A stretch of DNA of 64,000 bases from an uncultured virus (IMG/VR IMGVR_UViG_3300020416_000657) (IMGVR_UViG_3300020416_000657), one strand, 5' to 3'. Shown: positions 1 to 64,000, numbered from the stretch's first letter. Program-made: numbers and translations. Notes: generated from the sequence alone by a model not told the origin.

Positions 1-294
1 AAGTTATTAACAACAAAAAGTAAACCAAAAAATGTACATCTTGGTTCTGGGAATCCAGTTAGTATATCGGAACTAGCAAAGGCATTTGACCACCCTATTG
101 TTTATGAATTTGACAAGAAGGGTGAGGCAGAAGTAACCGAATGTGAAAATCCATATATTGAAACAGAATATAATGTTATTAGTTATGTTAAGAAATGGAA
201 AAGTGATTATGAGGAAGAACGGATTTTAAGAAATGTAAACAAGGATTTGAGGAATGTGGAACGAAAATATGCCAAAATTGATAGTGGACAATGA
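1..294 (+). CDS. C-terminal part of a probable NAD-dependent sugar epimerase/dehydratase (truncated by window edge)
   Basis: Frame 1 is open from base 1 to TGA at 292-294. It reads ...KNVHLGSGNPVSISELAKAFDHPIVYEFDKKGEAEVT..., resembling the C-terminal 'N(L/I)GxGxxxSIxELA' region of extended SDR epimerases. Confidence 0.5.
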   Translation, partial: KLLTTKSKPKNVHLGSGNPVSISELAKAFDHPIVYEFDKKGEAEVTECENPYIETEYNVISYVKKWKSDYEEERILRNVNKDLRNVERKYAKIDSGQ

Positions 295-559
295 CACAGA
301 AAAAGAAGAGAAGGTTAGCGATGTATTCATGGTTACGAAAGAATTTCATACATCCGCTGAGTTCTCTCAACACATAGAAAGAAAAGCTGTTTCTGCTGGT
401 AATTATATCGATGTTTTAGTAGAATACTGTGGCAGGAATGATATAGAAATAGAAAGTGTTAAAAAATTACTTACAGCATCGCTTAAAGAAAAAATCAAAG
501 CAGAAGCAATTGGTCTTAACTTAGTTAAGGGACAGAAGTCTTGTAAGTTACCCATATGA
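269..559 (+). CDS. gp33: late promoter transcription coactivator (T4 gp33-like)
   Basis: YIDVLVEYC...EIESVKKLLTASLKEKIKAEA..LNL motif; directly upstream of gp59. Start may be 254 or 269. Confidence 0.85.
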   Translation: MPKLIVDNDTEKEEKVSDVFMVTKEFHTSAEFSQHIERKAVSAGNYIDVLVEYCGRNDIEIESVKKLLTASLKEKIKAEAIGLNLVKGQKSCKLPI

Positions 560-1134
560 TTGAACCCTATGAAGTTTATAAACTGTACCTAGCTATTAAA
601 CTTCATTTTACTACCAAGTCATATGATGTAGTGAAGTATAAGGGTAAAGTTAGAGTAAAACCAGAGACTTTTCGTAAACGGAAAGACATGGTATCTATAA
701 AGAAACTTGCTAGGGATTATAAACGCGAGGAAATAATAGATTTTTTAGTCGCAAATTTTGTATCTGGAGAACGATGGGGTGGATTGTTTGATATACAAGC
801 ATCCAAGAGATACGAAGATTGGAAGGCAAAAAAGAATCAGAGAGAATATCTCTTTCAAAGGGATGTCTCAAAGATACTACTAGAGATGGAAAAACAAAAA
901 GTTGGCGCTTTTTTTGAAAAAAATGGAAAACAGGGCTTGACTTTTCGTCTGTACTTTGGTAGAATGATCGAAATTGAAACTCTTGTTATATTAGATAAGA
1001 TTTTCGATTTTGTAGAAGAAACGGATGATGTTTTACTAGAAGATGTTGTACTGCTGGTTAAAAAATATCGTCCTTTCATAAAGGTGACCGACTCAATGAA
1101 GGAAGTCGCCAAAACACTTACTCAACCTGTATAA
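556..1134 (+). CDS. gp59: loader of DNA helicase (T4 gp59-like)
   Basis: N-terminal YEVYKLYLAIKLHFTTKSYDVVKY and later IETLVILD motifs; gp33-gp59-gp32 synteny. Confidence 0.9.
   Translation: MIEPYEVYKLYLAIKLHFTTKSYDVVKYKGKVRVKPETFRKRKDMVSIKKLARDYKREEIIDFLVANFVSGERWGGLFDIQASKRYEDWKAKKNQREYLFQRDVSKILLEMEKQKVGAFFEKNGKQGLTFRLYFGRMIEIETLVILDKIFDFVEETDDVLLEDVVLLVKKYRPFIKVTDSMKEVAKTLTQPV
937..965 (+). promoter_or_regulatory. sigma70-type (early) promoter inside gp59
   Basis: TTGACT-N17-TAGAAT with TG at the extended -10 position. The same CTTGACTTTT -35 context recurs at 59789 and 60430. Confidence 0.5.
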
Positions 1135-1137
1135 ATA
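1130..1137 (+). promoter_or_regulatory. T4-type late promoter
   Basis: TATAAATA followed by an AGGAG Shine-Dalgarno and ATG at 1150. Confidence 0.7.
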
Positions 1138-1149
1138 GGAGTGTATATA

Positions 1150-1332
1150 ATGAGTAGGAAACTACGACCTCATGATGATGAGAAGCGTGTGCGGAGAGTA
1201 CCTAGTGAAGATAAAACTAGACTTGACAAATACCGACACATCATGTATAATGAGGATATGTATGAGTCTGAAGAGTTCTTGGACGCTTTAGACAAAAAAA
1301 GTAAAATACAACGCAAACATAAACCAATATAA
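1150..1332 (+). CDS. small basic hypothetical protein
   Basis: ORF between gp59 and gp32 with AGGAG Shine-Dalgarno upstream of ATG 1150. Confidence 0.65.
   Translation: MSRKLRPHDDEKRVRRVPSEDKTRLDKYRHIMYNEDMYESEEFLDALDKKSKIQRKHKPI
1223..1251 (+). promoter_or_regulatory. consensus sigma70 promoter for gp32
   Basis: Perfect TTGACA-N17-TATAAT about 100 nt upstream of the gp32 start. Confidence 0.75.
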
Positions 1333-1349
1333 CGCACAAGGAGAAATAT

Positions 1350-2255: not shown

Positions 2256-2275
2256 TATCTAAGATTAGTTATGCG

Positions 2276-2308: not shown

Positions 2309-3838
2309 ATGGCGAAAATTATGGATGGAATTATATTTGGTGGACAACTAGAAGACTTTGCTGGGTCAATTCATAAAGAAGATTCAAAAAACATCTCAAT
2401 AAGAAGAAGTTCAGGCGGACACAAGATTGCCACTTTTTTGAGGCAGAACGGTTATAATATAGATGTAATAGATTATGTCCACAGATGGAAAATAGAACAA
2501 CTTAAAAAATATTTAAAACCTAGAGCAGAAAAGTGTAAGTTCTTTGGATTTGGTTCTACATTCTTTTTAGATAGTCCAGTTGTTAAAGAACTGGTTGAAT
2601 GGTTAAAACAAGAATATCCAAATATACCGCGTGTTGCTGGTAGTCAAAATGATAGTATGCGTAGTCTGGACATGGATTGGTATGTCTATGGTTACGGTGA
2701 AAACGCCATGTTGGAATTGATGAAACATTTCGATGGTGGGCCAGAACCGATACACTTCAATAAAGTAATTAACTGTTATGTAAATTACAAATCATTTCCG
2801 AAAGAAGATTTAACAGTATCTTACCAAGAAACAGATTTTATGAACCCAAGGGAAATACTTCTTTTGGAGTTTGCTCGTGGATGTAAGTTCAAATGTAAGT
2901 TCTGTAGTTTCCCGATACTAGGCGTCAAGGGTGATTACTCTCGTACAGCAGAAAGCGTCTATGATGAGATGTTAGAGAATTATGATAAGTGGGGAACAGA
3001 ACATTATATTGTCCTAGATGAAACATTCAATGACAGTCCACAGAAGATTGAGAAGTTTGCTAATGTAATAGAAAAACTTCCATTTCAACCAAAGATGACC
3101 GCGTATATCCGTGGTGATTTAATAGCTTCGCGTCCTAAAGATTGGGATAACCTAATTAAGATGGGAATTACATCTCACTTCTATGGTATTGAAAGTATGA
3201 ACCACAAGGCAGCTAAATCTGTTGGTAAGGGAATGAATACTGGTAGGATACAGGACGGACTATTAGAAGTAAAAGAATACTTTCAGAAAAATGCTGGATT
3301 CTACAAAGGTCATATATCATTAATATCTGGACTTCCATACGAAACCATTGATAGTCTACGCGATACAGTAAAATGGTGTTCTGAATACTGGGCAGACCAG
3401 AGTTATCATATGAATATATTGATGATTAAGTTACTAGGAAAACCATCTCTCAATCATAGTTCAGAATTTGATTTAAATTGGAAAGAATATGGATATAGAG
3501 AGGGTAAATTCCCCGAAGATGATATAAAGTGGGATATGAGTATCAATCCGTTCTATAAAGTCCTCTACGACTATGTGGCGACCTCTGGCGAGTACATTAT
3601 GTGGGAAAATGACTACTCTAGCATGTATGAGTGTTTTAAATTTTGCGTGGAAGAGTTTAGTAAAGCAAAACTAAAAAATGTATTAGACCCATTCATGTAT
3701 GATAAGTTTTTCATTGACCCTAGTGTAACTTGGAATGATTTTCAGACACAAACTCACATGGAAAGAAGAGAAAGTTTTATTCTAGACCATGTTGATGGAT
3801 ATATTCAGAAAAAACTTAATTGTTCTTTTGAACCATAA
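2309..3838 (+). CDS. radical SAM protein with probable N-terminal cobalamin-binding-like domain
   Basis: LEFARGCKFKCKFC (CxxxCxxC), VLDETFN, YGIES and ISGLPYET motifs typical of B12-dependent radical SAM proteins. Confidence 0.85.
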   Translation: MAKIMDGIIFGGQLEDFAGSIHKEDSKNISIRRSSGGHKIATFLRQNGYNIDVIDYVHRWKIEQLKKYLKPRAEKCKFFGFGSTFFLDSPVVKELVEWLKQEYPNIPRVAGSQNDSMRSLDMDWYVYGYGENAMLELMKHFDGGPEPIHFNKVINCYVNYKSFPKEDLTVSYQETDFMNPREILLLEFARGCKFKCKFCSFPILGVKGDYSRTAESVYDEMLENYDKWGTEHYIVLDETFNDSPQKIEKFANVIEKLPFQPKMTAYIRGDLIASRPKDWDNLIKMGITSHFYGIESMNHKAAKSVGKGMNTGRIQDGLLEVKEYFQKNAGFYKGHISLISGLPYETIDSLRDTVKWCSEYWADQSYHMNILMIKLLGKPSLNHSSEFDLNWKEYGYREGKFPEDDIKWDMSINPFYKVLYDYVATSGEYIMWENDYSSMYECFKFCVEEFSKAKLKNVLDPFMYDKFFIDPSVTWNDFQTQTHMERRESFILDHVDGYIQKKLNCSFEP

Positions 3839-5612: not shown

Positions 5613-5613
5613 T

Positions 5614-7215: not shown

Positions 7216-7848
7216 TTAATCAATCCAATCATTAATATTATGAGCAATTTTACTTTTGATAGCGTTTTTAATACCGTTCTTACGGAAATTGAGTATTCCA
7301 AACAACCTTTCTGCATCACCCGCTACAACACCTCTAGAAGTCCACCTTCTAAAAGCAAATGTCACATTAACTCTCACTATACCTTCAGCACTTTGACCCA
7401 TTGGTAGAATGTTCATGAGTCTTGGAAATGCATCATATAGTTTCCATCTTGTTACTATGTTATCTTCTCTGTCAAGAGCATATACTTCTACCTGTCCCAC
7501 ATGTTCGTCTGGAAAACTGACTTCTTTTGAAAGGGGGTCAGCGATAGTGGTCATCCAGTTTTCAAAATATGTTCTTACATCCCAATTATCGTCACAGAAA
7601 AATGTGAACGCGGCTGTGTCTCCAAAGTATTCTATACCATGCGCTCTTTGTTCTGTCCAATGAGATATTTTTGTTGGCGACCATTGAATTTGTAAGCCTG
7701 GTATTTGTGCCTCTTCACACATTAATGATATGTCTCTATCCTCTACAAATCGGCCTGGCGAATTAATAACCACCTCAAACCTATTAGACCTCGCAAGGTC
7801 ATTCTTTCTAACTTTCGCAATGAAATCTTTTGTTTTAAAATATGCCAT
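7216..7848 (-). CDS. gp54: baseplate tail tube initiator / tail-tube-fold protein (gp54-like)
   Basis: LARSNRFEVVI, MCEEAQIPG, YFENWM and KLYDAFP motifs of the gp19/gp54 fold; located between gp2 and gp26. Confidence 0.7.
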   Translation of the reverse strand: MAYFKTKDFIAKVRKNDLARSNRFEVVINSPGRFVEDRDISLMCEEAQIPGLQIQWSPTKISHWTEQRAHGIEYFGDTAAFTFFCDDNWDVRTYFENWMTTIADPLSKEVSFPDEHVGQVEVYALDREDNIVTRWKLYDAFPRLMNILPMGQSAEGIVRVNVTFAFRRWTSRGVVAGDAERLFGILNFRKNGIKNAIKSKIAHNINDWID

Positions 7849-8914: not shown

Positions 8915-10240
8915 ATGAGTGTTTACAATTGGTTAGATGAAAAGCTTGGTGGTTGGTTGCCAGGCGGCATCCCACGCGGAGGCAGTAAACAAGAAGGAAG
9001 TGACCCAACGAACACCGAAGACGCAGTTGCAACAGCAGCTGGTGCCACTCAAGAAGCACGAGGCACCAAAAAAGAAAAACCAACAAAACAAAAAATTACA
9101 TTTCAGTCTTTGTCTTACCCAAATGGATTAGATAATACAGATGAATTCCCCCATCAAATAATGTTCAATGTTTTGATAAGACAGACAGATGCAGAAGCAG
9201 CTGCCAATACTCATCTAGGAAATGCGGGCCGTGGAGAAGACTTAATGAGTAATCTTAGTAATGACCAAGCAAATCAAATAGTTCAAGATACAACAACTGG
9301 TTTAGTTGCGGGCGTTGGTGCAGCTGCGGTTGTAACTGGGAGTGCTACTACTAAGGCAGCGGGCGCTGCTGGTGTTTTACTTTCTGGAGAGGCTGGTAAA
9401 TTAGCAGCTGGATTAGTAGAAACTAAAACTACCAGAAAATGTGTTGCTCGTATTAGAATGGCTATGCCAATGTCTCCAAAAAATGAAATGCAAGCACAAT
9501 GGGATGTTACAGATTTTGGTTCTATTATGGGTGCATTGGTAACCGAAGGTGGAACTAGAGGTGTAACAGATATGTTGAAAAGTGCTGATGGTTCAACTGA
9601 AGCTGGACAAGCATTACTTAGAACTGCAGCTGGTACATTAAACATAACAAAACAATTAGGAGTAAACTTACCACTTCAATCCAGTATAGAGTTAATGTCG
9701 CGTAAAGTACAAAACCCATTTACAGAGACATTGTTTAAAACGATGAACTTTAGGAATTTTCCTTTTACATTTAAATTTGCACCCAAGAATAGACATGAAT
9801 TGTTACAAGCTTTAAAAATAGTTAATGTATTTGAAAGATATATGACACCAGAAAAAAGTGAACACCAGTTATTTTTACAGTATCCTGCTGAGTTTGAGAT
9901 AATCTACCAGTATAAAAACAAAGAAAATGCTTACTTTACTAACTTCTTTAATGATACTGCTTTGGTAAATTTTGTGGTAGACTATGGTCAAGGTGGACAT
10001 TATACTTCATTCCAAGGAACAGAAGGTGCTCCATCAGAAATTACTATGTCTTTAAACTTCAAAGAACTAACACTTCTTCACAGAGATGCTATTGTTGATC
10101 TCACCGACCAAGAAGATGTGATGGGTGGTTTCCAAGGATTAGGCCCAAGTGTATCGGGTGAGGTTCCAGCAGAAGAACCAGAAACACCAGAAACAATAAC
10201 AGAAACTAGTTCCGCACAAGCAGCAGGAGAGAATGGATAA
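8915..10240 (+). CDS. gp48: baseplate tail tube cap
   Basis: LSYP, NPFTETLFKTMNFRNFPFTFKFAPKN..E, LQYPAEFEI and ITMSLNFKEL motifs. Confidence 0.88.
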   Translation: MSVYNWLDEKLGGWLPGGIPRGGSKQEGSDPTNTEDAVATAAGATQEARGTKKEKPTKQKITFQSLSYPNGLDNTDEFPHQIMFNVLIRQTDAEAAANTHLGNAGRGEDLMSNLSNDQANQIVQDTTTGLVAGVGAAAVVTGSATTKAAGAAGVLLSGEAGKLAAGLVETKTTRKCVARIRMAMPMSPKNEMQAQWDVTDFGSIMGALVTEGGTRGVTDMLKSADGSTEAGQALLRTAAGTLNITKQLGVNLPLQSSIELMSRKVQNPFTETLFKTMNFRNFPFTFKFAPKNRHELLQALKIVNVFERYMTPEKSEHQLFLQYPAEFEIIYQYKNKENAYFTNFFNDTALVNFVVDYGQGGHYTSFQGTEGAPSEITMSLNFKELTLLHRDAIVDLTDQEDVMGGFQGLGPSVSGEVPAEEPETPETITETSSAQAAGENG

Positions 10241-10752: not shown

Positions 10753-10758
10753 TACATC

Positions 10759-23245: not shown

Positions 23246-26200
23246 ATGGCGATTGATTTAAATGTAACACCTTATTATAACGATTTTTCAGCAGCGAAAA
23301 AGTTTAATCGCGTAGTCTTCAAGCCTGGAGTTGCGGTACAAGCCAGAGAGTTAACCCAGTTACAAGATTATGTGTTAAACACCATAAAAGAATTTGGTGA
23401 TTTTGTATTCACCGATGGTGCTACAGTAAGAGGTGGTTCTGGATATCCTGTCCTTGTCCCTTATATTAAAATTAACGATGTTGATTCTTCTGGTACTGCC
23501 GTATCAAATGACACTCTTGCAAATTATATTGGCGACACAATAACTGGTTCTACGACAGGAATCAAAGCAGAAATTAAAGATTGTAAAACTGGAAGTGACA
23601 CAGATGCAGTTAAAAAGAAAACATTTTATCTTAACTACACCAAAGGTAATGAATTAGAATCTGGTATTATTGAATCTTCAATAAGATTTGAGGCAGGAGA
23701 AACATTAACTGTAACTAGTACTGACTCTGGAAGAAACGGAGATACCTTTGTTGTAGATAATAATACAGACATTGCTAGTTTTACCAAAAACTTTTATGGG
23801 TACGCGATAGACTTTGTTATAGAAGAAGGTATTATATACGCTCAAGGTAAATTTATTGCTCATGATACTCAGACACTAAGACTTGACGATTTCAATATGA
23901 ATGTCAACTTCTTTGTTGGTATCAAAGTAAATGAGTCAATTGTAACTTCAGATGATGATTCAAGTCTTCTAGACCCCGCTACAGGTGCTTTCAACTTTAA
24001 TGCACCAGGCGCCGATAGAACTAAAATAGACACCGTAATTACAAAAGTTCCATACGGAAAAGATTACGCTAACTCAACAATATATGAAATCGGTGAGTTT
24101 ATATCAAACGGTGATAACATTTACGAAGTTACTACCTCTGGTACAACTAATTCAGTTGGTGATGGCCCAACTCATACTACAGGTAACGCGACAGATGGTA
24201 CTGTGGTATTTAAATATTTTGAAATGCCAACTGGGTTTACTGCTCTTTATAAAGTAAAACAAGGACAGATACAAAAGAAATATGATACCAGATTAAATGA
24301 ACTTGCAGAACTCGGTAAAGCTCTTGCTGTAGAGAAAAATGAAACAGATGGTGATTATGTAATTGAACCGTTTACTATAAAAATAGTAGAGCATTTAAAA
24401 ACATTAAAAGGTGTAACTTTTAATACATCAACAAATACCAATTATAGTGTGGGTCAATATGTAAATCACTTAGGTAATCTTTATGAAGTGAATATTGCTG
24501 GAACCTCTAATTCTGGTACTCCACCAGTACATACAAGTGGAGATGTTCTTAGTGGCACAGTAAGTTTTGGTTACAGAGGTGTATCATATAGAATAGATAA
24601 CGAAGGATATAGATTTAGTACAAACGCTACAGACCCAGGCGATGCAAATGCGCTTATGGCACTTGTTTCGCCAGGCATTGCATACGCAAATGGATTCCGA
24701 AGAGAATATTTCAAAAACCAACCAATAAAAATTAGAAAAGGAACATCTACAGAAACCAAAGAATCTAGAGATGTCACATTAGGATATGGTAACTATTTTA
24801 ATGTTAAAGAAGTTGTTGGTACATTTGATATAGAAAATGGTGGGGTATGTAATATTGGATTCTTTGGAAGTATAGGTTCACAGACAGGTGCAGCCGCTCA
24901 CTCAGATGGAACATTTGGTGGACATGCTGCTTTAGGAACAACTATTGGTACATGTAGGGTTCGTGCCTTAAAGAGGGCATCTGGAAACCCAGGCGCTGCT
25001 GCTACACAATACAGACTTTTTGTATATGATGTAAGAATACGAGATGGAAAAATTGGGGACGCGAGATGTATTCAATTCCCAAATTCTACTGATAGTGGTT
25101 TCGCTGACATCATACTCGATGATACAACTGGAAATGGAACTGGTGATACTGCTTTTGTACACGGAACAGATTACAACAAATTAGTTTATCAAGCACCTTG
25201 GCAGTCAACTAAGACCCTTGCAGCTGCTGGTGGTGGAACATATGATACTCAATATTTTTATACAGAAGAATTCAATGTAAGTGTTCCTGCTAATGGTCAG
25301 TTTAGTATCAGTACTGCATCACTTGGTTCAGAAGTAATATTCCCATATAGTGTTGCTGGTTTGACACAGACAATATTAGATAATAAAATTTACATGGTAT
25401 GTAAGACTTCTGGTATCACAGATATTGGTGATGGTACTACTATTTCTGGTTCTGAAGGTCGAGTTATTAGAATTACCCCAAGCATGGTTACAGCTGCTGC
25501 TAACGGTCAAACAATGGAGTTTGATGTTGGTACACCTAGTGGAACATATGACGCTTACTTACAAGTAGAAGTAAAAGTAGTTGATGCTGTTCCAGTACCA
25601 AAAGCACTCAATACTGGTAGATATGTCAAGATTGACACGCGAGATAATGTCGGCGGTGCAAACGGGCCATGGCCTCTTGGTATAGTAGATGTTAAGGAAA
25701 TTGAAGCGATATATGTTTCTTCAGACTTAAACACATACTTAGACGATTCAGATAATAAAATTAACCATAAAAAAGATTTTATTTTAGATACTGGACAGAA
25801 CGATAACTTCTATGGTCACTCAAAAATAGTTAAAAAAGCAACAAGTTCTCTCAACACAACAGACAAACTTTTAACAGTTAAATTGAGTCACTTTACCGCT
25901 AACTATGGTGGTTCAAATGGAACATACTTTGCAAAAGATTCTTATCCAGTAGACGATACTGGTGCTACTGGTATATACACATTTGAAATTCCTTATCACA
26001 ATTCTAAAAAACTAGGTAACTTTAATCTTAGGGATGCGATTGATTTTAGACCAAGAAGTAAACAGACTGCTGTATCTGCTACAACATTAGAAGTTGCTAC
26101 TGAAAATCCATATCCTACAGATGATTTTGATTTACCTTCAAACGGTATTCAATTCCCGACACCTAATAGTAATTTTACAACAGATGTAGAATACTATCTG

Positions 26201-36263: not shown

Positions 36264-36421
36264 TACCAATGTCTCAATACTCCCGATATAATAAAGAAAC
36301 AGGTGAAGAAGTTTACCAAGACAACTATGGTTCTCATTATTGCAACCATATCAGCCTCGTGTGAATCATCCGATGCCTTTTCTCCTAAAGACATGCACCA
36401 TAGTTTCCAAAGTTTTTTCAT
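36263..36421 (-). CDS. small membrane protein, 52 aa (not in the ORF track)
   Basis: MKKLWKLWCMSLGEKASDDSHEADMVAIMRTIVVLVNFFTCFFIISGVLRHW*; GGAGG Shine-Dalgarno, TAATG coupling to the next gene, one hydrophobic helix. Confidence 0.7.
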   Translation of the reverse strand: MKKLWKLWCMSLGEKASDDSHEADMVAIMRTIVVLVNFFTCFFIISGVLRHW

Positions 36422-36423
36422 TT

Positions 36424-37236: not shown

Positions 37237-39742
37237 GGCAATCTCCACAATTTCTGGTACAAACGCTGAGGGGTTTCCTCTTCAAGTGTTGACTTATGTT
37301 CTCAAAGTCATGGTTATAAATTATCTCACCGATATTAAATTTCGTCCCATCATTATACTTGAAATTGTATGTATAGTCAATAGGATGATAAGGAAATAAT
37401 TTGTGTTCCATTACATCTCTAGCAATGTACGCACACGGAAAAAGGTTGCCTTGCGAATTCACATAAAAATATTCACTTTTCCTCGCGTCACACCATACTG
37501 GTTCCTTCTCTTTCATCTTAGGTTTCTTGGTTCGTACTTCCTCATCCTTCTTAAACCGTTTCAATGTTTCCAGACTTACTGGAATATCACTAGCAATACT
37601 ATCATTTACCTTTATTTCGTTCTCGGTTGGTTGTGTAGGAAGTACATGTTCAACCCTATCAACAAAAGGTAGGTCTTTTATATATGACTTAAATGTTTGA
37701 ACGGTAACTGTACAGCCTAATTTTTCTTTAAAATACCGACAAATAGACTCAATTTGGTCACAGTTTGTCGGGTCTGTGATTTCACACATAAATGTAACCC
37801 ATTGTAACTTGAAGTTTTCAACTACAGTCTTGAGAGAATCTAGTGTATGTTCTTTTCCATTGACAAAAATATCATTAAATTCATTCCCAGTATCATTTTG
37901 TTTGGTAGATAGTTGTATTAATGCACCTTCTGGATTGCCATCATCATACAATCCTGTGTATAAGTCACTATATTGTTCCCCATGCATTTGAAAATACTTG
38001 ACAAGAGTATCATTATCTTTTACACTATCTTGATTAATGATTGATATGAGTTCTTGTTTGGGCATGATGTTGTATAGTCTTTCAAATACTTTCTCATAAT
38101 CTTCTTTATAAAATAATTCTTTTAGGTTCTGTAAATAGTATTTCTTGTACAGGGATTGAACATCTTCAGCTGACGCATCCCAGAACACCCTTTGCATCCC
38201 ATGTTCTTTGATGTTATCCATGACATCTTTTTTGATTTGTGGTAGTGTGTTTTTATCCCATAGTCTTTTATACAACGCGAAACATTGTAGAAAACTTATG
38301 TTCCAGAAATATCTAACAGCGCCCAGTTCTTTCGCTTCATCAAACGCGGTTAGATGAGACTTATATATGTACCTCTGTTTGTAAAAGTCATATATCTCAT
38401 TTGCATCTTTGTTCCAATACAAAGACTCATCACCCTGTAACAGTACAGGGTCATCTGGATAGTCAGCGAGAAACTTTTTATGCATTGAAATCATATCACC
38501 AGAATCATATAGTTCTTTGATAATATCCTTGTGGTGCGGTTCTATTTGTCGTATAAAAATAAGGTCAGATATCTCTCTTTCTAATTCTGGTACATGTACC
38601 TTCACTTCAGAAATTGTACCTTTAAAATATTCTTCCAACTCTGGGAAGTCATTAATCATTTTTTCTGAAAGGGATTGCAAATCATTTGTTTCAATAAGTT
38701 CTTTTATGTCTGATATTGTATCCTTGTCCATATAGTTTTCTTGTAGCATACTATCTGTTAAAGATTCAAATCCAATCCACTCGCGTAGTGTTTCAAACTC
38801 TTTTGAATATTGTTCCCAATCTTGTTTTAGTTGTGGTAAGTCTTTGAAGAATTTTTCTTCTAGTGTATCGTAGTCTTTAGTACGCAATAACTGAGATATC
38901 TTATTGGTATGTTTATTTTTATCAAAGAAGTTATCTGGAAACTTGGGTAACCACAATCTTTCAAATTCTGTTTTGCCGTGCCAATGTGTGAGTAGATTGT
39001 AATCTCTTAACTCGTGTGGTTTGAGATTGTTTTTGTTTCTACCACCAACGGATGCTTCAAAGATACAGAATTTTGCACTTTCTCTATACAGGTGTTGCGT
39101 GACATCATTGGGATGTTGTCTCCCTCTATTGTAGGAGTATACCCAATCACTAGGTAAGAACGACCAATAGTTATCGCCTACTGCTTGATGTTCTCTGTAT
39201 GGGTAGTAGTTATCGGTTCCTTTCCAAAAGGTTTTAAACACCGTGTCCTTGTGTTTCATTACATCATTGTAAATCTTTTCCCCTTGGTCAGTACACCATA
39301 ACATGACACTAGAGTTGTATAATGTGCCACGCATGTCTGTAAATCTTCTGTCATTGAGAACTTTTGGATTTTCCCAATTGGAATAAATCATGTGCGGAGT
39401 TTTCGATAGTTCAAATATGTCATCGATGTTGTTTTGAATTATGACATCTAAATCCAGATAACAGAAAGGCCCTTTGGTTTTTAACCAATGGTGGGAATTG
39501 AGAACAAGAAACTTTGCTCTATCCCAACAGAAGTTTTCTTGACCAAACCAATGCCGTGGATGGAGAGGGTCTACATTGGGTATAGACCGAATCTTAATAT
39601 CCTTGTGTATATCTTCTGGTTCGTCTGTGTAGCATATGAACTTAAACCTTTTGGTGTAGTTCTGCTGAACCATTCTGTATAGATTATTTACATATTCTGG
39701 AGAGTACTTATTCCCCCATTTCATGCAAAGAAAGTGCATCAT
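37226..39742 (-). CDS. fusion protein: GT-A glycosyltransferase, helical region, degenerate radical SAM/SPASM-like C-terminus
   Basis: N-terminal MKWGNKY, YLDLDVII, NSSVMLW; C-terminal WCDA...YVNSQGNLFPCAY...VCTRNCG. No CxxxCxxC motif present. Confidence 0.7.
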   Translation of the reverse strand: MMHFLCMKWGNKYSPEYVNNLYRMVQQNYTKRFKFICYTDEPEDIHKDIKIRSIPNVDPLHPRHWFGQENFCWDRAKFLVLNSHHWLKTKGPFCYLDLDVIIQNNIDDIFELSKTPHMIYSNWENPKVLNDRRFTDMRGTLYNSSVMLWCTDQGEKIYNDVMKHKDTVFKTFWKGTDNYYPYREHQAVGDNYWSFLPSDWVYSYNRGRQHPNDVTQHLYRESAKFCIFEASVGGRNKNNLKPHELRDYNLLTHWHGKTEFERLWLPKFPDNFFDKNKHTNKISQLLRTKDYDTLEEKFFKDLPQLKQDWEQYSKEFETLREWIGFESLTDSMLQENYMDKDTISDIKELIETNDLQSLSEKMINDFPELEEYFKGTISEVKVHVPELEREISDLIFIRQIEPHHKDIIKELYDSGDMISMHKKFLADYPDDPVLLQGDESLYWNKDANEIYDFYKQRYIYKSHLTAFDEAKELGAVRYFWNISFLQCFALYKRLWDKNTLPQIKKDVMDNIKEHGMQRVFWDASAEDVQSLYKKYYLQNLKELFYKEDYEKVFERLYNIMPKQELISIINQDSVKDNDTLVKYFQMHGEQYSDLYTGLYDDGNPEGALIQLSTKQNDTGNEFNDIFVNGKEHTLDSLKTVVENFKLQWVTFMCEITDPTNCDQIESICRYFKEKLGCTVTVQTFKSYIKDLPFVDRVEHVLPTQPTENEIKVNDSIASDIPVSLETLKRFKKDEEVRTKKPKMKEKEPVWCDARKSEYFYVNSQGNLFPCAYIARDVMEHKLFPYHPIDYTYNFKYNDGTKFNIGEIIYNHDFENISQHLKRKPLSVCTRNCGDCHAS

Positions 39743-40361
39743 AATATTTTTGTCTCAAATTGTAATTGACTTCATTTTGTCCGTTTAACAAGACAATTGG
39801 ATAATCTGGTTTTATTTGATGAGCTCTTGGTGAGGTATCTGTTTCCATGTCTACCCCAGCAAGGAACGAATATATCAATCCTTTTGGGAATGTTCGTTTA
39901 AAGAACCTTCCATCATATAAAAAATTATCATCCTTACCATCGTATTTATGCAAGTTTAAATCAAAGTTTTTGAAAAATGCTTCTGTTATATAGGCGGCAT
40001 TATCACATTTCCATGCCATAACACTAGAGTTCCACGCGCCACCAAAGTCTTTCCAGTATGTTTCGCATATGGTAGGTTCATCGCAAAGGTCAAATAAAGG
40101 GGTAAGGTTACCTTGAACTATAACATCGAGGTCTAAATATATGGTTCGGCCACCAAAATTTTTACCAAGAAGTAAGATTTTTTCCCAGTTGCCTAGACCA
40201 GTATACTTCTGTGTAAGTATTCCTTGTTTTAATCCTTTTGGGTCATCGGTTCGACACCAAAAGTTGCCACCGAATAGATATGGTTTACACATATTATAAA
40301 TAGTGTTTACATCATCGGCAGAGTATTTGTTTCCGTATTTGAGGGTGACAATTGTTCTCAT
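39708..40361 (-). CDS. GT-A glycosyltransferase (KWGxKY family)
   Basis: LKYGNKY, CRTDD, WEKILL, YLDLDVIV (DxD) and WNSSVMAW motifs. Confidence 0.8.
   Translation of the reverse strand: MRTIVTLKYGNKYSADDVNTIYNMCKPYLFGGNFWCRTDDPKGLKQGILTQKYTGLGNWEKILLLGKNFGGRTIYLDLDVIVQGNLTPLFDLCDEPTICETYWKDFGGAWNSSVMAWKCDNAAYITEAFFKNFDLNLHKYDGKDDNFLYDGRFFKRTFPKGLIYSFLAGVDMETDTSPRAHQIKPDYPIVLLNGQNEVNYNLRQKYYDALSLHEMGE
40295..40302 (+). promoter_or_regulatory. T4-type late promoter inside the opposite-strand GT gene
   Basis: TATAAATA about 80 nt upstream of 40381. Confidence 0.55.
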
Positions 40362-53357: not shown

Positions 53358-53358
53358 T

Positions 53359-55381: not shown

Positions 55382-56647
55382 ATGTATCTTTCAGAAGAAA
55401 TCCAAAAAAAGTGGAGTCCAGTATTGGATCACCCCGACCTTGGCGAAATCAAGGATAGTTATCGTAAAGCGGTAACTGCTGTAATTCTTGAAAACCAAGA
55501 AAAGGCATTGCAAGAAGAGAAATCAATAATCTCTGAAGCAGTTCACGCAAATAATATGTCATCTGCGATTGACACTTATGACCCCATCCTTATCTCATTA
55601 GTAAGACGAGCTCTTCCTAATTTGATGGCGTATGATGTCTGTGGTGTTCAACCTATGACAGGCCCAACAGGTCTTATCTTTGCCATGAAGTCACACTACA
55701 CCTCTCAAACAGGTACAGAAGCTCTGTACAATGAGGCTGATACTGACTTTGCTGGTACAGGTACTCACGCTGGGTCGAATCCAGTTGACGGTTCATACAC
55801 AACTGGTACTGGTGTAACTAGAGACAATGCAGAATTGTTCGGTGACACAGTTACTTTGAACCAAATGGCATTCTCAATCGAGAAGACAACTGTAACCGCT
55901 AAGTCAAGGGCATTAAAAGCAGAATATACTGTGGAACTTGCTCAAGACCTTAAAGCAGTTCACGGTCTTGACGCTGAGTCAGAATTATCAAACATTCTGT
56001 CACAGGAAATTCTCGCTGAGATTAACCGAGAAGTAATTAGAACTATCTACAAAGTTGCTAAGACAGGTGCTGCTTCGACTGCATCTGCTGGTACTTTCGA
56101 CCTTGATGTTGATTCAAATGGTCGTTGGTCTGTAGAAAGGTTCAAGGGTCTCTTGTTCAACATTGAACGAGATGCTAATGTTATCGCTCAAGATACTCGT
56201 AGAGGAAAAGGTAACTTCATCATCTGTTCTTCAGATGTTGCCTCTGCACTTTCAATGGCTGGTGTATTAGATTACGCTCCTGCTCTTGACACTAATCTTA
56301 ATGTCGATGACACAGGTAACACTTTCGCTGGTGTTCTTAACGGACGCTACAGAGTGTATGTTGACCCTTATTCTGCTAACACAGGTGCTGCTTCTCAGTT
56401 CTATGTTGCCGGTTATAAAGGAACTTCACCTTATGACGCTGGTCTGTTCTACTGTCCGTATGTACCTTTACAAATGGTTCGTGCGATTGACCCATCTACT
56501 TTCCAACCGAAAATCGGTTTCAAAACTAGATATGGTATGATTGCTAACCCATATGTAACACAATCTGACGGTACTACAGATGCAGACACATTTACTGCTG
56601 ATAGAAACCAGTACTACAGGTCTGTTAAAGTTACTAACCTTATGTAA
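55382..56647 (+). CDS. gp23: major capsid protein
   Basis: DPILISLVRRALPNL.AYDVCGVQPMTGPTGLIFAM, SRALKAEYT.ELAQDLKA.HGLDAE and FQPKIGFKTRYG motifs. Confidence 0.98.
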   Translation: MYLSEEIQKKWSPVLDHPDLGEIKDSYRKAVTAVILENQEKALQEEKSIISEAVHANNMSSAIDTYDPILISLVRRALPNLMAYDVCGVQPMTGPTGLIFAMKSHYTSQTGTEALYNEADTDFAGTGTHAGSNPVDGSYTTGTGVTRDNAELFGDTVTLNQMAFSIEKTTVTAKSRALKAEYTVELAQDLKAVHGLDAESELSNILSQEILAEINREVIRTIYKVAKTGAASTASAGTFDLDVDSNGRWSVERFKGLLFNIERDANVIAQDTRRGKGNFIICSSDVASALSMAGVLDYAPALDTNLNVDDTGNTFAGVLNGRYRVYVDPYSANTGAASQFYVAGYKGTSPYDAGLFYCPYVPLQMVRAIDPSTFQPKIGFKTRYGMIANPYVTQSDGTTDADTFTADRNQYYRSVKVTNLM

Positions 56648-60458: not shown

Positions 60459-60496
60459 GTGTAGTTATATAAAGTTTAATTGGAGTTTTCTTTATT

Positions 60497-61036
60497 ATGA
60501 ACATATTTTATTTACATAAAACCCCTACCATATCAGTAAAAATGCATTGCGACAAACATGTCGTGAAGATGGTTATTGAGTATGCTCAGTTATTGTCTAC
60601 CGCCCACAGAATGTTGGATGGTACACAATGGATTGACGCATCTAGTGGTAGGAAAATCAAACGGTGGCGACTAGACAATTCTAATATGGATGGTGTCTTA
60701 TACAAAGCGTCACACATCAATCACCCATCTGCTATATGGGTTCGTGAAAACAATTCTCAGTATCAATACATGTACAACATGTTTACTAATCTTTGTGATG
60801 AGTACACATACAGGTATGGTAGAATACACATGACCGATTCCAAGTTGCGTGAATTGTTATCTGAGTCACCAAAGAATATACCACATGGTTCTTGGAATGA
60901 ACCACCACAATGTATGCCAGATTATTGTAAACAGTCCAACGCTCTTGATGGATACAGAACCTATTACAGAGAAGAGAAAAAAGGTTTCGCTAAATGGACT
61001 AACCGCGATGTACCAGAGTTTATGAATGTCGCATGA
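60497..61036 (+). CDS. pyrimidine dimer DNA glycosylase-like protein (DenV superfamily)
   Basis: MNIFYL...HCDKHVVKM..EYAQLLSTAH, YKASHINHPSAIWVRE, EYTYRYGRIH and PPQCMP motifs. Confidence 0.8.
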   Translation: MNIFYLHKTPTISVKMHCDKHVVKMVIEYAQLLSTAHRMLDGTQWIDASSGRKIKRWRLDNSNMDGVLYKASHINHPSAIWVRENNSQYQYMYNMFTNLCDEYTYRYGRIHMTDSKLRELLSESPKNIPHGSWNEPPQCMPDYCKQSNALDGYRTYYREEKKGFAKWTNRDVPEFMNVA

Positions 61037-62145
61037 TATTATCAAAAGAAGATACCATATATGCTAGCAAGATAGTTGTTGATTACTTTTCAAAGTTTGA
61101 AAGGATTGACGATTACTTTCGTGCGAGAAAAATCGAAAGAGTGAAGGCATTGCCTCCGCCTCTCTTTGGTATGAGTGTAGAGGATGATATGTTTCAGAGT
61201 TGGGATATGCATCCAGAAGAAATGAATTTTTCAGTTGTTCAAATGAACAATGAGGTGTTTGACCAGATGCTAGAGATGACTGCATCTTTTTCACCAGACC
61301 AAGCGCCAGGCAAAGAATTAAAACTGATTGTGAAAGAAACGAATACAAACACAGCAGTTGGTTTTATCAAGTTGGGGTCACCGTTAATAAACTCCAAACC
61401 AAGGAATGATTTTCTTGGTGGTGTCCCCGACTTGCCTATCTTTAACAAGAGGGCAATCATGGGGTTTAATATAGTTCCAGTACAACCATTTGGATTTAAT
61501 TATCTAGGTGGTAAGTTATTGGCTGCCATTTGTTGTTCGCATGAAGTACGAAGGATGTTGAACAAGAAATACAATACAGAGTTTTGTTTGTTTGAAACTA
61601 CATCTTTATATGGTAACATAAAGGGTGCTAGTATGTACGATGGTATGAGACCGTTCCTAAGATATAAAGGAGATACCATGTCATCATTCTTACTAACTAT
61701 GGGTGAAGAAATTTATTTTCATTTACGCGATTGGTTTGAAGAAAAGAATGGTGGTGAAGTTCTTATTCACAAGGGTGCATCTAGTAGAAAACTTAAATAC
61801 CAAACAAAGATGATTCAAGTTCTCAAGGCAAACCTAAAAGAACATGATGTGAAAGCATATGAGTTGTTTGATGATGTAATCAAGAAGTCAACCGATGTGA
61901 CTACACAAAAAAGATTTTATATGTCAGAGTATGGATATAAGAATGTACGCGATGTTCTTCTTGGTAAAACAAATACACTAGAGAAGGCAGAAAACTTTGA
62001 TAGGTTTGAACTAGAAAATGTTATTGATTGGTGGAAAAAGAAAGCCGTCAAAAGATATAGCAACTTGGTCTCAGATGGAAGAATAAGAAAAGATTTGGAA
62101 GTCTGGAATTCTGAAACAATTAACAAAATAGATATAATAAGATGA
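61033..62145 (+). CDS. DUF4338 / Druantia DruA-like protein
   Basis: VGFIKLGSP..N...R, IVPVQPFGFNYLGGKLLAAICCSHEV...KY and ETTSLYG..SMYDG, matching the DruA/DUF4338 core as recalled. Confidence 0.6.
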   Translation: MILSKEDTIYASKIVVDYFSKFERIDDYFRARKIERVKALPPPLFGMSVEDDMFQSWDMHPEEMNFSVVQMNNEVFDQMLEMTASFSPDQAPGKELKLIVKETNTNTAVGFIKLGSPLINSKPRNDFLGGVPDLPIFNKRAIMGFNIVPVQPFGFNYLGGKLLAAICCSHEVRRMLNKKYNTEFCLFETTSLYGNIKGASMYDGMRPFLRYKGDTMSSFLLTMGEEIYFHLRDWFEEKNGGEVLIHKGASSRKLKYQTKMIQVLKANLKEHDVKAYELFDDVIKKSTDVTTQKRFYMSEYGYKNVRDVLLGKTNTLEKAENFDRFELENVIDWWKKKAVKRYSNLVSDGRIRKDLEVWNSETINKIDIIR

Positions 62146-62393
62146 ACATAGAAATTTATTCAAAACCAGATTGCCCCTTCTGTGACAGGGCTGTGCATAT
62201 TGCACAACAAATAGTACAAGAAACAACACATATCAAGTATGAGAAAAAAATGTTAGATGAAGATTTTACATTTGATGAACTGCTTGAAAAATCACCTCAC
62301 GCCAGAACATTCCCACAGATATTTGTGGACGGTGAACTGATTGGTGGTTTCAATGACTTTGAAAAAATGGAGTGGTGGGCTGACAGACAATGA
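62142..62393 (+). CDS. glutaredoxin
   Basis: IYSKPDCPFC, RTFPQIF and LIGGF motifs. Confidence 0.93.
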   Translation: MNIEIYSKPDCPFCDRAVHIAQQIVQETTHIKYEKKMLDEDFTFDELLEKSPHARTFPQIFVDGELIGGFNDFEKMEWWADRQ

Positions 62394-62803
62394 AAAACTC
62401 CCTTGGTTTAGTTGTAGAGGATATAGACGAACCAATACTAGGAAGACCAGAAAACTCTGGTAAGAGACTAGAACTATTGGTTGAAAAGTTTTGTAAGCAA
62501 AACTCTATTGGATATACAAGAGCTAAATCTGGTGCGAGAGAAATTGATTTCATTATTACCAAGGACGAACAAATATTTTATGCTGATTGTACAAATCAAA
62601 ATGTTGGGGGTAGTGTAGAAGAAAAACTACCACATAAAATTTGGAAGTATTATAAACAGTATCAATATGACGAGGTTTATATTATAACAGGCAGTCATAA
62701 AATAAGTAGAAGTGTTTTGAGTCATTGTAAAGAGATTGGTGACATTTATAGTTTCACTCCACACTTTGTTGACTTAGATAATTTTACAAGGATAATAAAA
62801 TGA
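62390..62803 (+). CDS. PD-(D/E)XK-like nuclease family protein
   Basis: SGKRLE..VE, IDFII....ADCTNQNVGGSVEEKLP; the usual ExK position reads DCT. Confidence 0.55.
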   Translation: MKNSLGLVVEDIDEPILGRPENSGKRLELLVEKFCKQNSIGYTRAKSGAREIDFIITKDEQIFYADCTNQNVGGSVEEKLPHKIWKYYKQYQYDEVYIITGSHKISRSVLSHCKEIGDIYSFTPHFVDLDNFTRIIK

Positions 62804-63207
62804 AGGTAGGATTTACTTGTGGTGCATTTGATTTACTACACGCTGGTCATGTAGTTATGCTTGAAGAGGCAAAAGATAATTGTGACTTTCTTATGGTGGG
62901 ATTACAAACAGACCCCACACTAGACAGGTCAAATAAAAACAAACCAGTACAAAGTATATACGAGCGATACATTCAGTTGTATGGTCTCAGATATGTTGAT
63001 GAGGTTATCCCATACGACAGGGAAAGTTGTTTGATGGATATACTCAATACGAAACGAATTGACATAAGATTTGTCGGTGAAGAGTATAAAGATGAGATGT
63101 TTACAGGGAGTCATTTACCCATAGAGGTTTACTATACCAGTAGAGCACACACTTTCTCTTCTACAGATTTAAGAAAACGAGTGAGGAATGCTCCTAAACC
63201 AAAATGA
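62800..63207 (+). CDS. cytidylyltransferase (TagD/glycerol-3-phosphate cytidylyltransferase-like)
   Basis: GFTCGAFDLLHAGH (HxGH), VGLQTD, KPVQSIYER, VDEVIPY and FSSTDLR motifs. Confidence 0.9.
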   Translation: MKVGFTCGAFDLLHAGHVVMLEEAKDNCDFLMVGLQTDPTLDRSNKNKPVQSIYERYIQLYGLRYVDEVIPYDRESCLMDILNTKRIDIRFVGEEYKDEMFTGSHLPIEVYYTSRAHTFSSTDLRKRVRNAPKPK

Positions 63208-63520
63208 CATTGGTGGATATGTTGCTAAGGAAGACGATAGATATATTGTCAAGGATAATCCTTTTGGTAACACATTAGTAATTAGTAGTACGCGATTGCG
63301 TGGTGGACAGGAAACTACTGGACATGAACACGATGGTCAAGAAGAGGTATATTTTTTTATTGAAGGTGAAGGTATCATAGAATTAGATTCGTTATACACC
63401 AATGTTAAGGCTGGCGATATAGTACCAATTCAAGATGGTGTCTTTCACAAAGTTTATAATAGTTCAGATGACAATGATTTATATTTCATTTGTGTGTTTG
63501 ACGGAAAGAGAAAAGTATGA
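63188..63520 (+). CDS. cupin domain protein
   Basis: TTGHEH..QEEVYFFIEGEG and GDIV.I..G.FHKVYN motifs. Confidence 0.85.
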   Translation: MLLNQNDIGGYVAKEDDRYIVKDNPFGNTLVISSTRLRGGQETTGHEHDGQEEVYFFIEGEGIIELDSLYTNVKAGDIVPIQDGVFHKVYNSSDDNDLYFICVFDGKRKV

Positions 63521-64000
63521 AGATAACATGTGCTAGATTGCGGTCTAATGTAAAGTATGAAGGCCCACTACAAACGGTACTAGATAGTTTTTTAGAGAAC
63601 TATGTGAAGTGGATGAGGGCAAACCCCCAACACCAGTACGGAACCTATAACATATCATTTGATGGTACTAGACCCAAGAGAACACCAGAGTCAATAGAAT
63701 GGGCTGACGCGATAGTAATCCCTAGTGATAGTGAGTTTAGATATCATGGTGAGTTACAAATGAATCCAAAAGACTTGGCGAAGTCACAGGCCCACATGGA
63801 TAACATCATACCATTCTTTAAAGACAAACATGTTATTGTCATGAGAAGTGATAGAGGTGATGACGAAAAGTTATACAGAGAAGAAACACTACAGAATGTG
63901 CCAATCAAATCTTACACAGAGATTGATGAGATTGATTTCTCTGGTAACATACACGGAATGAAGTATCACTTTATAAGAAACAAATTTGGCAACCCACTAT
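63517..64000 (+). CDS. N-terminal part of an unknown protein, possibly a DNA glycosyltransferase (truncated by window edge)
   Basis: ATG 63517 overlaps the cupin stop (ATGA) and the frame is open to the window end: MKITCARLRSNVKYEGPLQTVLDSFLENY...ADAIVIPSDSEFRYHG...HVIVMRSDRGD. Function inferred from context and an alpha/beta pattern only. Confidence 0.45.
   Translation, partial: MKITCARLRSNVKYEGPLQTVLDSFLENYVKWMRANPQHQYGTYNISFDGTRPKRTPESIEWADAIVIPSDSEFRYHGELQMNPKDLAKSQAHMDNIIPFFKDKHVIVMRSDRGDDEKLYREETLQNVPIKSYTEIDEIDFSGNIHGMKYHFIRNKFGNPL

Follow-up and report, generated by a model that had tools for sequence, protein, structure and literature searches.

We analyzed a stretch of 64,000 nucleotides, called here the window, from an uncultured virus (IMG/VR IMGVR_UViG_3300020416_000657) and found that restriction-type sites have been purged from it except where one adjacent base places them in the context 5'-GC[C/T]-3'. 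This context-dependent survival is a direct observation, and its cause we infer from the footprint: the phage DNA probably carries a covalent post-replicative modification at GC[C/T] (or at RGC, if the other strand is read) which shields overlapping restriction sites. The modification would lie at 5'-GC[C/T]-3' (5'-[A/G]GC-3' opposite), stronger at GCC and weaker at GCT, and a site with its first C or its last G in this context would be immune even if only one strand qualifies. Many restriction systems would select away each unshieldable copy, and constrained positions would be driven to the shielded form, for example Pro-Gly written as CCA-GGC.

The window corresponds to positions 38368-102367, read on the minus strand, of one viral contig of 137,116 bp (G+C 37%; completeness 83% by CheckV). 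Pfam and PHROGs annotation of its 160 open reading frames (ORFs) revealed genes of a T4-like myophage: gp23, gp20, gp18, gp43, gp32, UvsX/Y/W, and baseplate proteins. Among named phages, the major capsid protein is 69% identical to that of Methylophilales phage Melnitz, 66-67% to those of the pelagimyophages HTVC008M and Mosig, and 64% to that of Synechococcus phage S-PRM1; megablast of a 7-kb ORF against named phages gave zero matches. We place the phage in the family Kyanoviridae, among marine T4-like phages, as kin of Melnitz and the pelagimyophages. Its relative G001 from IMG/VR (161 kb) has 85% identity to the contig over aligned DNA. A G001 segment of ~24 kb (118720-142454) fits exactly between the two ends of the contig and the G001 ends abut on the contig's map, so the two contigs jointly span the whole circular map.

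Expected counts were obtained from 100 synonymous-codon shuffles within each ORF, and both strands were counted. Paired figures written a/b are observed/expected from this codon-preserving null. A site is called flanked if G stands directly 5' or C directly 3' of it, and unflanked if it has neither; a hyphen within a motif separates the core from its flank.

Palindromic 4-6-mers lie far below the null, as expected under restriction-site avoidance, and judged by the counts about 25 kinds of restriction-enzyme sites have been removed from the phage. Contig-wide, ACGT was found 0 times vs 543 expected, GATC 54 vs 802, CASTG 4 vs 288, CGWCG 0 vs 146, GGWCC 0 vs 171.6, CGTCTC 1 vs 26, and ACCTGC 3 vs 54. 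No copy of TTCGAA, GGTACC, TGCGCA, GTGCAC, GTCGAC, CTCGAG, ACGCGT, CGTACG, or TCGCGA is present in the contig; the window lacks these and also ACGT, GGWCC, CGWCG, and CASTG. The purge is visible in codon choice, as the preliminary description of the window had noticed. All 33 Gly codons that precede Pro are GGC or GGG, while GGT and GGA account for 1234 of the total of 1512 Gly codons, and the Ser codon preceding Gly is TCA in only 3 of 140 cases, vs 388 of 1377 among all Ser codons. The same description had called GC-containing palindromes common. This is correct for GGCC (278 vs 262), TGCA (978 vs 1080), and CGCG (404 vs 202) but not for AGCT, which is depleted (398 vs 942). CGCG, twice as frequent as expected in the contig, has zero copies in the counted stretches of Melnitz (100 kb), HTVC008M (50 kb), and Mosig (50 kb); ACGCGT and TCGCGA are absent from the contig, and G-CGCG and CGCG-C are rare there.

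The sites that remain obey one rule. Every CCWGG, 36 of 36 in the window and 66 of 66 in the contig, has a G before it or a C after it, which was the first claim of the preliminary description; the positions it listed are exact (7697, 8960, 11998, 13710, 18536, 24005, 26345, 56979) except for 48303, which is really 48313. All 15 CCTGA/TCAGG sites of the window are flanked (TCAGG by a following C in 8 of 8, CCTGA by a preceding G in 7 of 7), and all read GCCTGA on one strand, as had been claimed; they lie at 2411, 5353, 20027, 21672, 22668, 41288, 45242, 54351, and seven more places. Contig-wide the figure is 28 of 30. The lone CCGG reported for the window is likewise preceded by G, and so it is flanked like all seven in the contig. 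In the window CTGCAG (6 of 6), CTTAAG (2 of 2), CCATGG (6 of 6), YGCAGG/CCTGCR (3 of 3), and ACGGG/CCCGT (5 of 5) are always flanked, and the surviving contig copies of CTGCAG (7 of 7) and CTTAAG (3 of 3) are flanked too. Examples are given in Table 1 together with the window genes discussed below.

Table 1. Selected surviving sites and genes in the 64,000-nucleotide window
Feature	Position in window	Strand	Basis
TCAGG then C (GCCTGA on the other strand)	2411..2415	+	motif scan
CCWGG shielded on one side, GCCTGGT	7697..7701	.	motif scan
CTGCAG kept as CTGCAG-C, GCT context on the other strand	9624..9629	.	motif scan
CCATGG kept as GCCATGGC	25667..25672	.	motif scan
CCWGG of the rare class GCCAGGD, GCCAGGA	26345..26349	.	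motif scan
Sole CCGG of the window, GCCGGT	56409..56412	.	motif scan
Glycosyltransferase-like (phrog_1962), clustered with the oxygenase	34960..35640	-	
2OG-Fe(II) oxygenase (PF13759), not TET/JBP; weighed as writer component, unsupported	35640..36269	-	
Second glycosyltransferase-like (phrog_1962), same cluster	39711..40361	-	
DruA-like protein, 370 aa, best candidate writer	61033..62142	+	PF14236, phrog_19197

Codon shuffles of the contig make the dependence on the flank quantitative. HCCWGGD occurs 0 times vs 140.4 +/- 13.2 expected, and GCCWGG is enriched threefold (99 vs 33.2). HCCTGA occurs 2 times vs 159.8 and GCCTGA 28 vs 27.6; HCCGGD is found 0 times vs 142.1; CCATGG is found 0 times vs 12.3 unflanked and 14 vs 10.1 flanked. 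With 61 copies of CCAGGC vs 17.6 expected, the flanked form is over-represented beyond mere tolerance. The preliminary description had proposed counting 4-6-mers against a codon-shuffled null by flanking base, and this count upheld flank-dependent survival in the GG-C cases.

Only 65 bp, contig positions 134105-134169 (outside the window; ~16105-16169 of locus L005), contain the two CASTG copies of the contig together with one of its two unshielded TCAGG; the region has small ORFs and G+C 40%. No tRNA was found around it, and the sole Rfam match of the scanned stretch is a sub-threshold PhrS ~600 bp upstream.

Which bases of the flanked site give protection? A scan of all 4-6-mer cores for those with three 3' flanks purged and one kept returned CCAGG-C, TCAGG-C, TGCAGG-C, ACGGG-C, and GCCGG-C, and otherwise the trivial ACCTG-T; ACGGG-C occurs 10 times vs 7.3 and ACGGG with other flanks once vs 43. 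We then selected palindromes with unflanked copies at one tenth of expectation or less and grouped the survival of their G- or C-flanked copies by the first two bases. Flanked copies survive in full in palindromes that start with CC (87/82.6, ratio 1.05) and in part in those with CT (10/31.6, 0.32), while almost nothing survives with CA (2/49.4, 0.04), with CG (0/24.3, 0.00), or without initial C (13/372, 0.03). G-flanked CASTG, for example, occurs 2 times vs 46.2 and G-flanked CGWCG 0 vs 24.3. Read indirectly as contexts, the ratios are those of GCC, GCT, GCA, and GCG in this order. All 12 six-base palindromes containing GCC or GCT are present, the lowest being TAGCTA (8 vs 27.6). The base following the flanking C matches the background distribution in three genomes (142, 194, and 159 pooled sites), so the context stops at the flanking C; with the base after GGC at background, a GGCC-type (HaeIII-like) or RGCY-type specificity was rejected.

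By this survival the protective context is 5'-GC[C/T]-3' with the C inside the site, strong as GCC, partial as GCT, and without effect as GCA or GCG. The equivalent reading of the other strand is 5'-[A/G]GC-3' with the G inside the site, and whether GCY would be marked on its C or RGC on its G is not decided by sequence. The preliminary description had offered cytosine modification at GpC, or at GCC, as the shield. Its narrower alternative corresponds to the strong form of the context; GpC in general is too wide, because GCA and GCG do not protect, and palindromes that enclose GCG or GCA (TGCGCA, GTGCAC, TCGCGA, ACGCGT) are purged completely.

A flank on one strand suffices, as 33 of the 66 CCWGG sites are one-sided. 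Coding- and template-strand orientations are depleted equally, which shows that selection acts on double-stranded DNA and not on RNA; selection at the RNA level, for example by mRNA interferases, is rejected for the same reason. The orientation of CCAGG is asymmetric, with 61 copies carrying a 3' C and only 5 of the form GCCAGGD vs 13 expected. This asymmetry fits a second, asymmetric target CCTGR, shieldable solely as GCCTGR. Such a target is supported by the like behavior of CCTGA and by three related loci (L025-L027, with Mom proteins 80% identical to that of this phage) which keep the CCWGG rule and do not avoid CCTGA. A host enzyme for non-palindromic CCTGA, as suggested in the preliminary description, is thus plausible as a separate target.

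It is instructive to trace the footprint across related phages. The flanked survival ratios are 1.19 (CC), 0.38 (CT), 0 (CG), and 0.04 (without initial C) in G001, where no CA palindrome qualified, and 1.69, 0.60, 0.03, and 0.06 in Melnitz, with 0.21 for CA. Further cores follow the flank rule there, GACTGG-C in G001 and GGAGG-C in Melnitz. The contigs L010-L028, with a Mom protein 80-100% identical to that of this phage, contain zero unflanked CCWGG, and their avoided cores vary, with CASTG, ACGT, and CCTGA avoided in some of them only. Such variation would be expected from separate restriction systems, each aimed at its own core. Among 61 alignable CCWGG sites of the contig, 16 are non-sites in G001, and unflanked copies number zero in both genomes. 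With such turnover of sites the flank rule must be under ongoing selection and is no relic; it is maintained in diverged relatives.

Could the rule arise without any modification, from host enzymes whose true recognition sequences are longer than the cores counted here, or from a compositional artefact? At least nine cores follow one rule (CCWGG, CCTGA, CCGG, CCATGG, CTGCAG, CTTAAG, YGCAGG, ACGGG, and, in Melnitz, GGAGG), flanked sites are 3-fold enriched over the codon-preserving null, and the sets of avoided cores differ in close relatives while the flank rule is constant. We consider this explanation hardly credible.

More distant relatives bear on the question of whether phage or host supplies the shield. 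In S-PRM1, CCGG stands at 0/111 unflanked and 32/56.9 flanked, with 31 of the 32 one-sided, and CTCGAG at 0/11 vs 3/5.5. In HTVC008M the unflanked and flanked figures are 10/34.3 vs 41/27.0 for CCGG, 2/25.3 vs 9/16.2 for CTGCAG, and 1/16.7 vs 4/5.4 for CTTAAG. Mosig, from the same host strain of isolation as HTVC008M, has no such shield (CTGCAG 0/18.3 unflanked, 2/14.7 flanked). As HTVC008M is shielded and Mosig is not, the shield looks phage-encoded and not host-supplied. A methyltransferase common in the host population, whose mark the phage merely exploits, would explain why the phage encodes no canonical writer, and the Melnitz paper says that the host also encodes a type II DNA methylase (PMC9004378). 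Against such a source stand the contrast between Mosig and HTVC008M and the presence of the same footprint in phages of three unrelated hosts, OM43, SAR11, and Synechococcus. In addition, no close relative of the Melnitz C5-methyltransferase was found among the genomes of 185,579 species by a scan which detects close relatives only. A host writer is therefore very unlikely.

The two pelagimyophages show flank-dependent patterns of their own. HTVC008M (NC_020484) has a second set with the unflanked and flanked figures 0/197 vs 83/124.5 for GATC, 0/140 vs 28/37 for GAWTC, 0/61 vs 15/22 for GASTC, and 0/21.7 vs 14/11.8 for GTATAC; its TC-C and AC-C contexts suggest that [A/T]CC may be another modification motif. 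In Mosig (MT647606) GATC is confined to GGATCC (GGATC-C 38 vs 13.4, remaining flanks 0 vs 92), the GTATAC survivors are all flanked, and a putative adenine methyltransferase gene lies directly downstream of the DNA polymerase gene.

If the DNA is modified, then we can ask: which enzyme is the writer? Phage C5-methyltransferases associated with TET mainly recognize GpC[C/T], and TET turns Gp5mC[C/T] into 5-hydroxymethylcytosine for tailoring (Burke et al. 2021, PMC8256090). This published specificity is the same as the context inferred here, and the two systems are also alike in their short, non-palindromic context and presumed restriction evasion. Melnitz carries the pair, with a C5-methyltransferase gene at 4010-5227 (PF00145, E=7e-55; E=2e-56 in another search) downstream of the DNA polymerase gene and a Tet_JBP gene directly after it at 5208-6194 (E=4e-11 by hmmscan, 8e-13 in six frames with the match at 5697-6089). 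In 14 Melnitz-like loci with this pair the unflanked sites are 0 of 48 CCWGG, 0 of 12 CCGG, and 1 of 22 CTGCAG, and in 80 loci fetched by the methyltransferase 3 of 147 CCWGG. The C5-methyltransferase/TET mechanism probably holds for Melnitz. The Melnitz paper (PMC9004378) names the methylase and not TET, Mom, or site avoidance; the strings "mom" and "palindrom" occur 0 times in it. TET homologues in isolate phages were too distant for a test.

The preliminary description had linked the present phage to this pathway and had proposed searching the rest of the genome for a C5-methyltransferase, TET/JBP, or hydroxymethylase gene. The published specificity and the Melnitz pair agree with the link, but no such gene is found in the contig or in G001. 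Six-frame searches of both gave no C5-methyltransferase (PF00145, E<=0.01; control positive in 9 of 14 genomes), no TET/JBP (PF12851, E<=1), and no N4/N6 or D12-class methyltransferase (PF01555, PF02086), and each of these searches was positive in control genomes. Scans of called ORFs found no such writer either (Pfam for all 160 contig ORFs, PHROGs for 90 of these, Pfam for 30 of the 33 ORFs in the extra segment of G001), and 21 unannotated proteins showed no methyltransferase signal in Pfam even at a permissive threshold (E<=0.1). The complete genomes of HTVC008M and S-PRM1 contain no C5-methyltransferase, Mom, PF01555, or PF02086 gene, and TET and TGT/DpdA homologues are likewise missing from both. 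Two G001 proteins, HemK/MTS-like (223 aa) and Methyltransf_23 (211 aa), were rejected as writers: they lack an NPPY-type motif and have no homologue in Melnitz, HTVC008M, or Mosig.

A pathway of C5-methyltransferase, TET, and glycosyltransferase encoded elsewhere in the genome, methylating or hydroxymethylating every GpC cytosine, is for these reasons highly improbable. It is known from phages with GpC preference (PMC8256090), its gene pair is present in Melnitz, and the window itself holds a 2OG-Fe(II) oxygenase gene and two glycosyltransferase-like genes. But GCA and GCG are not protective, TGCGCA, GTGCAC, TCGCGA, and ACGCGT are absent, PF00145 and PF12851 are missing from the whole circular map, and the oxygenase belongs to PF13759 and not to Tet_JBP. 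On this evidence the writer in this lineage is no C5-methyltransferase/TET pair, and unlike in that system the modified base may be the G of the opposite strand.

The oxygenase and glycosyltransferase-like genes lie in a minus-strand cluster (window 34290-40361) which also encodes large proteins of 838, 274, and 239 aa and is absent from Melnitz. These three proteins are 98-99% identical to those of G001, vs a genome average of 85%. For the 838-aa protein (window 37229-39742) the Atlas search returned hypothetical clusters from viruses and, beyond these, just one weak lead, to radical SAM, that stayed below 0.8.

The guanine of 5'-RGC-3' might be the modified base instead, for example as a 7-deazaguanine set by a DNA transglycosylase as in phage CAjan (preQ0 at GA and GGC). 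The footprint would be the same, GGC is a documented 7-deazaguanine motif which blocks HaeIII-type enzymes (PMC7544227), and the extra segment of G001 encodes a QueC-like PP-loop protein. However, TGT/DpdA (PF01702, E<=1) was absent from the contig, G001, Melnitz, HTVC008M, and Mosig with the control positive in 14 of 14, and no match to FolE, QueD, or QueE of the preQ0 pathway was found in the contig ORF scans and the G001 segment. Nor do Melnitz, HTVC008M, and Mosig carry the QueC-like gene. In contrast to the CAjan system, GA is not protective here, and GATC is purged. A modified guanine, such as a 7-deazaguanine, seems unlikely.

The sole recognized DNA-modification gene in the contig encodes a member of the Mom family (PF25680 with E=2.3e-58 over profile positions 2-201 of 202; phrog_1384; E=4.5e-22 to 8BV8). 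The gene, at contig 25216-26037 and so beyond the window, has the clamp-loader gene on one side and the sliding-clamp gene on the other. Its homologues are 89% identical in G001 and 46% in Melnitz, and there is none in HTVC008M or Mosig. A search for close relatives by the gp45 sliding-clamp gene found no natural case lacking Mom. The gene overlaps its neighbors (contig 24452-26614), by 4 nt a gene for a cytidylyltransferase with a cupin domain and by 38 nt a peroxiredoxin gene, and these overlaps suggest that a single transcription unit was inserted at this place, next to the genes for clamp loader and clamp.

Mom of phage Mu moves glycine from Gly-tRNA to the N6 of adenine in SAS contexts and needs R111, S124, D149, and R151 (PMC13219725). 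The homologue of our phage keeps H58, Y59, S124, D149, and Y159, with R111 changed to K and R151 to I; both changes recur in Melnitz, Edwardsiella phage ET-ABTNL-9, Psychrobacter phage Y8A, and contig G003. The Mu system, in which a single post-replicative enzyme of GNAT fold acts in a three-base degenerate context and shields many unrelated sites (PMC13219725; 8BV8), is similar to the present one. It differs in that no adenine stands in the context found here and in that the homologue is without two residues essential in Mu. C-A-G, an SAS context, is part of each CCAGG, and still the unflanked copies have been removed; CCGG-C and ACGGG-C have no adenine in register. The Mu consensus (SASNY/SAS) was rejected as the shield: CAGGC fits it and CCGG-C and ACGGG-C do not, while S-ACGT and GGACC-Y fit and are purged.

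Could this Mom-family enzyme write the shield on C or G instead of adenine? It is common to G001 and Melnitz, and the changes R111K and R151I look as if the substrate differed. However, shield and Mom do not go together. S-PRM1 and HTVC008M are shielded without Mom, and ET-ABTNL-9, with a Mom of the same subfamily (52% identical), without the C5-methyltransferase and the DruA-like gene described below, and with GGCC avoided, has no shield (CCWGG 0/17.9 unflanked and 0/11.4 flanked; CCGG 0/18.6 and 1/13.7). Mom thus does not track the shield; given also that Mu Mom targets adenine in SAS (PMC13219725) and no adenine context accounts for CCGG-C or ACGGG-C, we regard it as a quite unlikely writer.

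The best candidate is the DruA-like protein in Table 1. It passes the Pfam cut-off of PF14236 (formerly DUF4338), the family of DruA from type I Druantia, with E=1.7e-7 and 31.2 bits (cut-off 27), residues 70-192 matching profile positions 56-181 of 297; it matches phrog_19197 at E=7e-150, and a six-frame search of G001 gave 31.7 bits. It differs from type I Druantia DruA in that the match spans only ~125 of the 297 profile positions and in that no other Druantia component appeared in the untargeted Pfam scan of the 160 ORFs, which was not aimed at DruB-E. The AlphaFold2 model of the protein (pLDDT 64) may have a GNAT fold: GNAT acyltransferases make up all of the top 50 VIA matches, at Z 6.0-7.1 only, Mu Mom among them (8bv8_B, Z 6.4, 151 aligned residues), and such a fold would be a further likeness to the Mu system. 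Foldseek gave no match at E<=0.001. The alignment of DruA-like proteins has an invariant stretch Q-P-F-G-x-N-x-L-G-G-K, which lies between a strand and a helix in the model, a site that would be the acyl-donor binding position in the GNAT topology.

The neighborhood of the DNA polymerase gene gives additional support. We fetched loci with the Melnitz DNA polymerase and recorded the gene directly downstream. In 14 loci this slot holds the Melnitz-type C5-methyltransferase/TET pair (unflanked CCWGG 0 of 48), in 19 loci, 17 of them with the full gene, a DruA-like protein of PF14236 (2 of 80 in the 17 full-gene loci), and in 14 loci another type of C5-methyltransferase with 38-43% identity (55 of 87). 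In the 17 full-gene loci 0 of 16 CCGG and 0 of 14 CTGCAG are unflanked. The pair and the DruA-like gene never occur at the same locus, and the DruA-like proteins of the slot are 51-78% identical to that of the window. The slot looks like a hot spot for DNA-modification genes. Complete genomes agree: HTVC008M has a DruA-like protein 50% identical, encoded directly after the polymerase gene, S-PRM1 has one 49% identical, and Mosig has only a distant DruA-type protein (23% identity). A preprint on Phold (10.1101/2025.08.05.668817) reports DruA-like proteins in six Synechococcus phages, among them S-PRM1. The family is very large: marine data yielded 5,749 members at E<=1e-5, none of which has a name, and our literature search found no statement of the biochemical function of DruA.

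As a tentative proposal, the shield may be written by the DruA-like protein with its putative GNAT fold. A wider idea, put forward with still more reserve, is that the abundant DruA-like proteins of marine T4-like phages, of putative GNAT fold, might form a new DNA-modifying class which marks 5'-GC[C/T]-3' and is interchangeable at the slot with the C5-methyltransferase/TET cassette, and that DruA of type I Druantia might be a self-marking modification module. Type II Druantia carries a cytosine methylase instead of DruA-C.

Another gene pair was considered as well. In a phyletic profile of eight genomes the shield was matched perfectly only by DUF6267 and its cytidylyltransferase-like neighbor, and we rejected this match as chance. 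The DUF6267 gene (417 aa) overlaps that of the cytidylyltransferase-like protein at contig 9173-11010, outside the window, and the pair tracks the shield in all eight genomes. DUF6267 has an invariant K-W-D-G, which we take to be ligase motif I, and so we read the protein as a presumable phage ligase; phmmer against PDB returned nothing.

Several points weigh against a GC[C/T] modification and its candidate writer. GCT shields only in part, and AGCT, which contains GCT, stands at 0.42 of expectation. ACCTGC-Y is shieldable, yet it survives just 3 times vs the 54 expected for all ACCTGC. HTVC008M partly avoids GGCC (unflanked 21/63.6, flanked 1/15.9) though GGCC contains GCC. The known writer genes are absent from the phage and from G001, and the GNAT fold of the DruA-like protein is only weakly supported, with pLDDT 64, Z below 8, and nothing from Foldseek at E<=0.001. 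G009, an IMG/VR genome of 92% completeness, has a DruA-like protein 52% identical and a weak TET-like match and no shield (CCGG 7/107 unflanked, 0/55.4 flanked). Finally, the compared phages are mutually related, and shared footprints represent few independent events.

G009 (150 kb; loci L285-L292) has a reversed pattern in which sites that carry GCY on either strand at once (AGCT, GGCC, AGSCT, GAGCTC, CAGCTG, AAGCTT, and GCTAGC) are depleted. The unflanked and flanked figures are 35/292 and 14/151 for AGCT, 28/99 and 3/34 for GGCC, and 7/72 and 7/43 for AGSCT; CCWGG stands at 11/45.5 flanked and 107/110 unflanked. One may speculate that GCY-modified DNA is attacked here by modification-dependent nucleases, but on present evidence G009 counts against the candidate.

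Some other features of these genomes can be mentioned. The extra segment of G001 (118720-142454) encodes ThyX, both ribonucleotide reductase subunits, RNase H, an SNase-like nuclease, the QueC-like PP-loop protein, and two SAM-methyltransferase-fold proteins. A permuted tmRNA gene lies outside the window at contig 103648-103988 (minus strand, 3648-3988 of locus L004) with the tag peptide AENNTAYEDYALAA; Melnitz has a tmRNA too. It falls in a ~25-kb cluster, contig ~102000-127500, also outside the window, which is absent from Melnitz and encodes at least nine radical-SAM or SPASM proteins together with sugar-nucleotide epimerases and dehydrogenases, a carbamoyltransferase, and GNAT, hydroxylase-like, and desaturase-like proteins. 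Sequence nearly identical to that of the phage (half or more of the sampled words) is present in 13 public runs, and any part of the phage in 20 runs, from 8 marine-metagenome studies of 2014-2025.

How does this phage compare with others that avoid restriction sites? As in classical avoidance, many palindromes of 4-6 bp were purged through synonymous changes. In contrast to it, the avoidance here depends on a single neighboring base, and the tolerated form exceeds its expected number, a situation for which our literature search found no description. The motif of a phage's own modification can thus be read from raw sequence as the sole context where purged sites survive, and flank-conditioned reading allows uncultured viruses to be screened cheaply for modified DNA. 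Very abundant ocean phages, kin of the SAR11, OM43, and Synechococcus myophages, appear to be GC[C/T]-modified without any known writer, which suggests that a DNA-modifying enzyme awaits discovery, with a definite and testable candidate gene. Marine virome studies that use restriction, methylation, or nanopore data would be biased by such modification, which also implies that restriction pressure is strong in hosts of streamlined genome.

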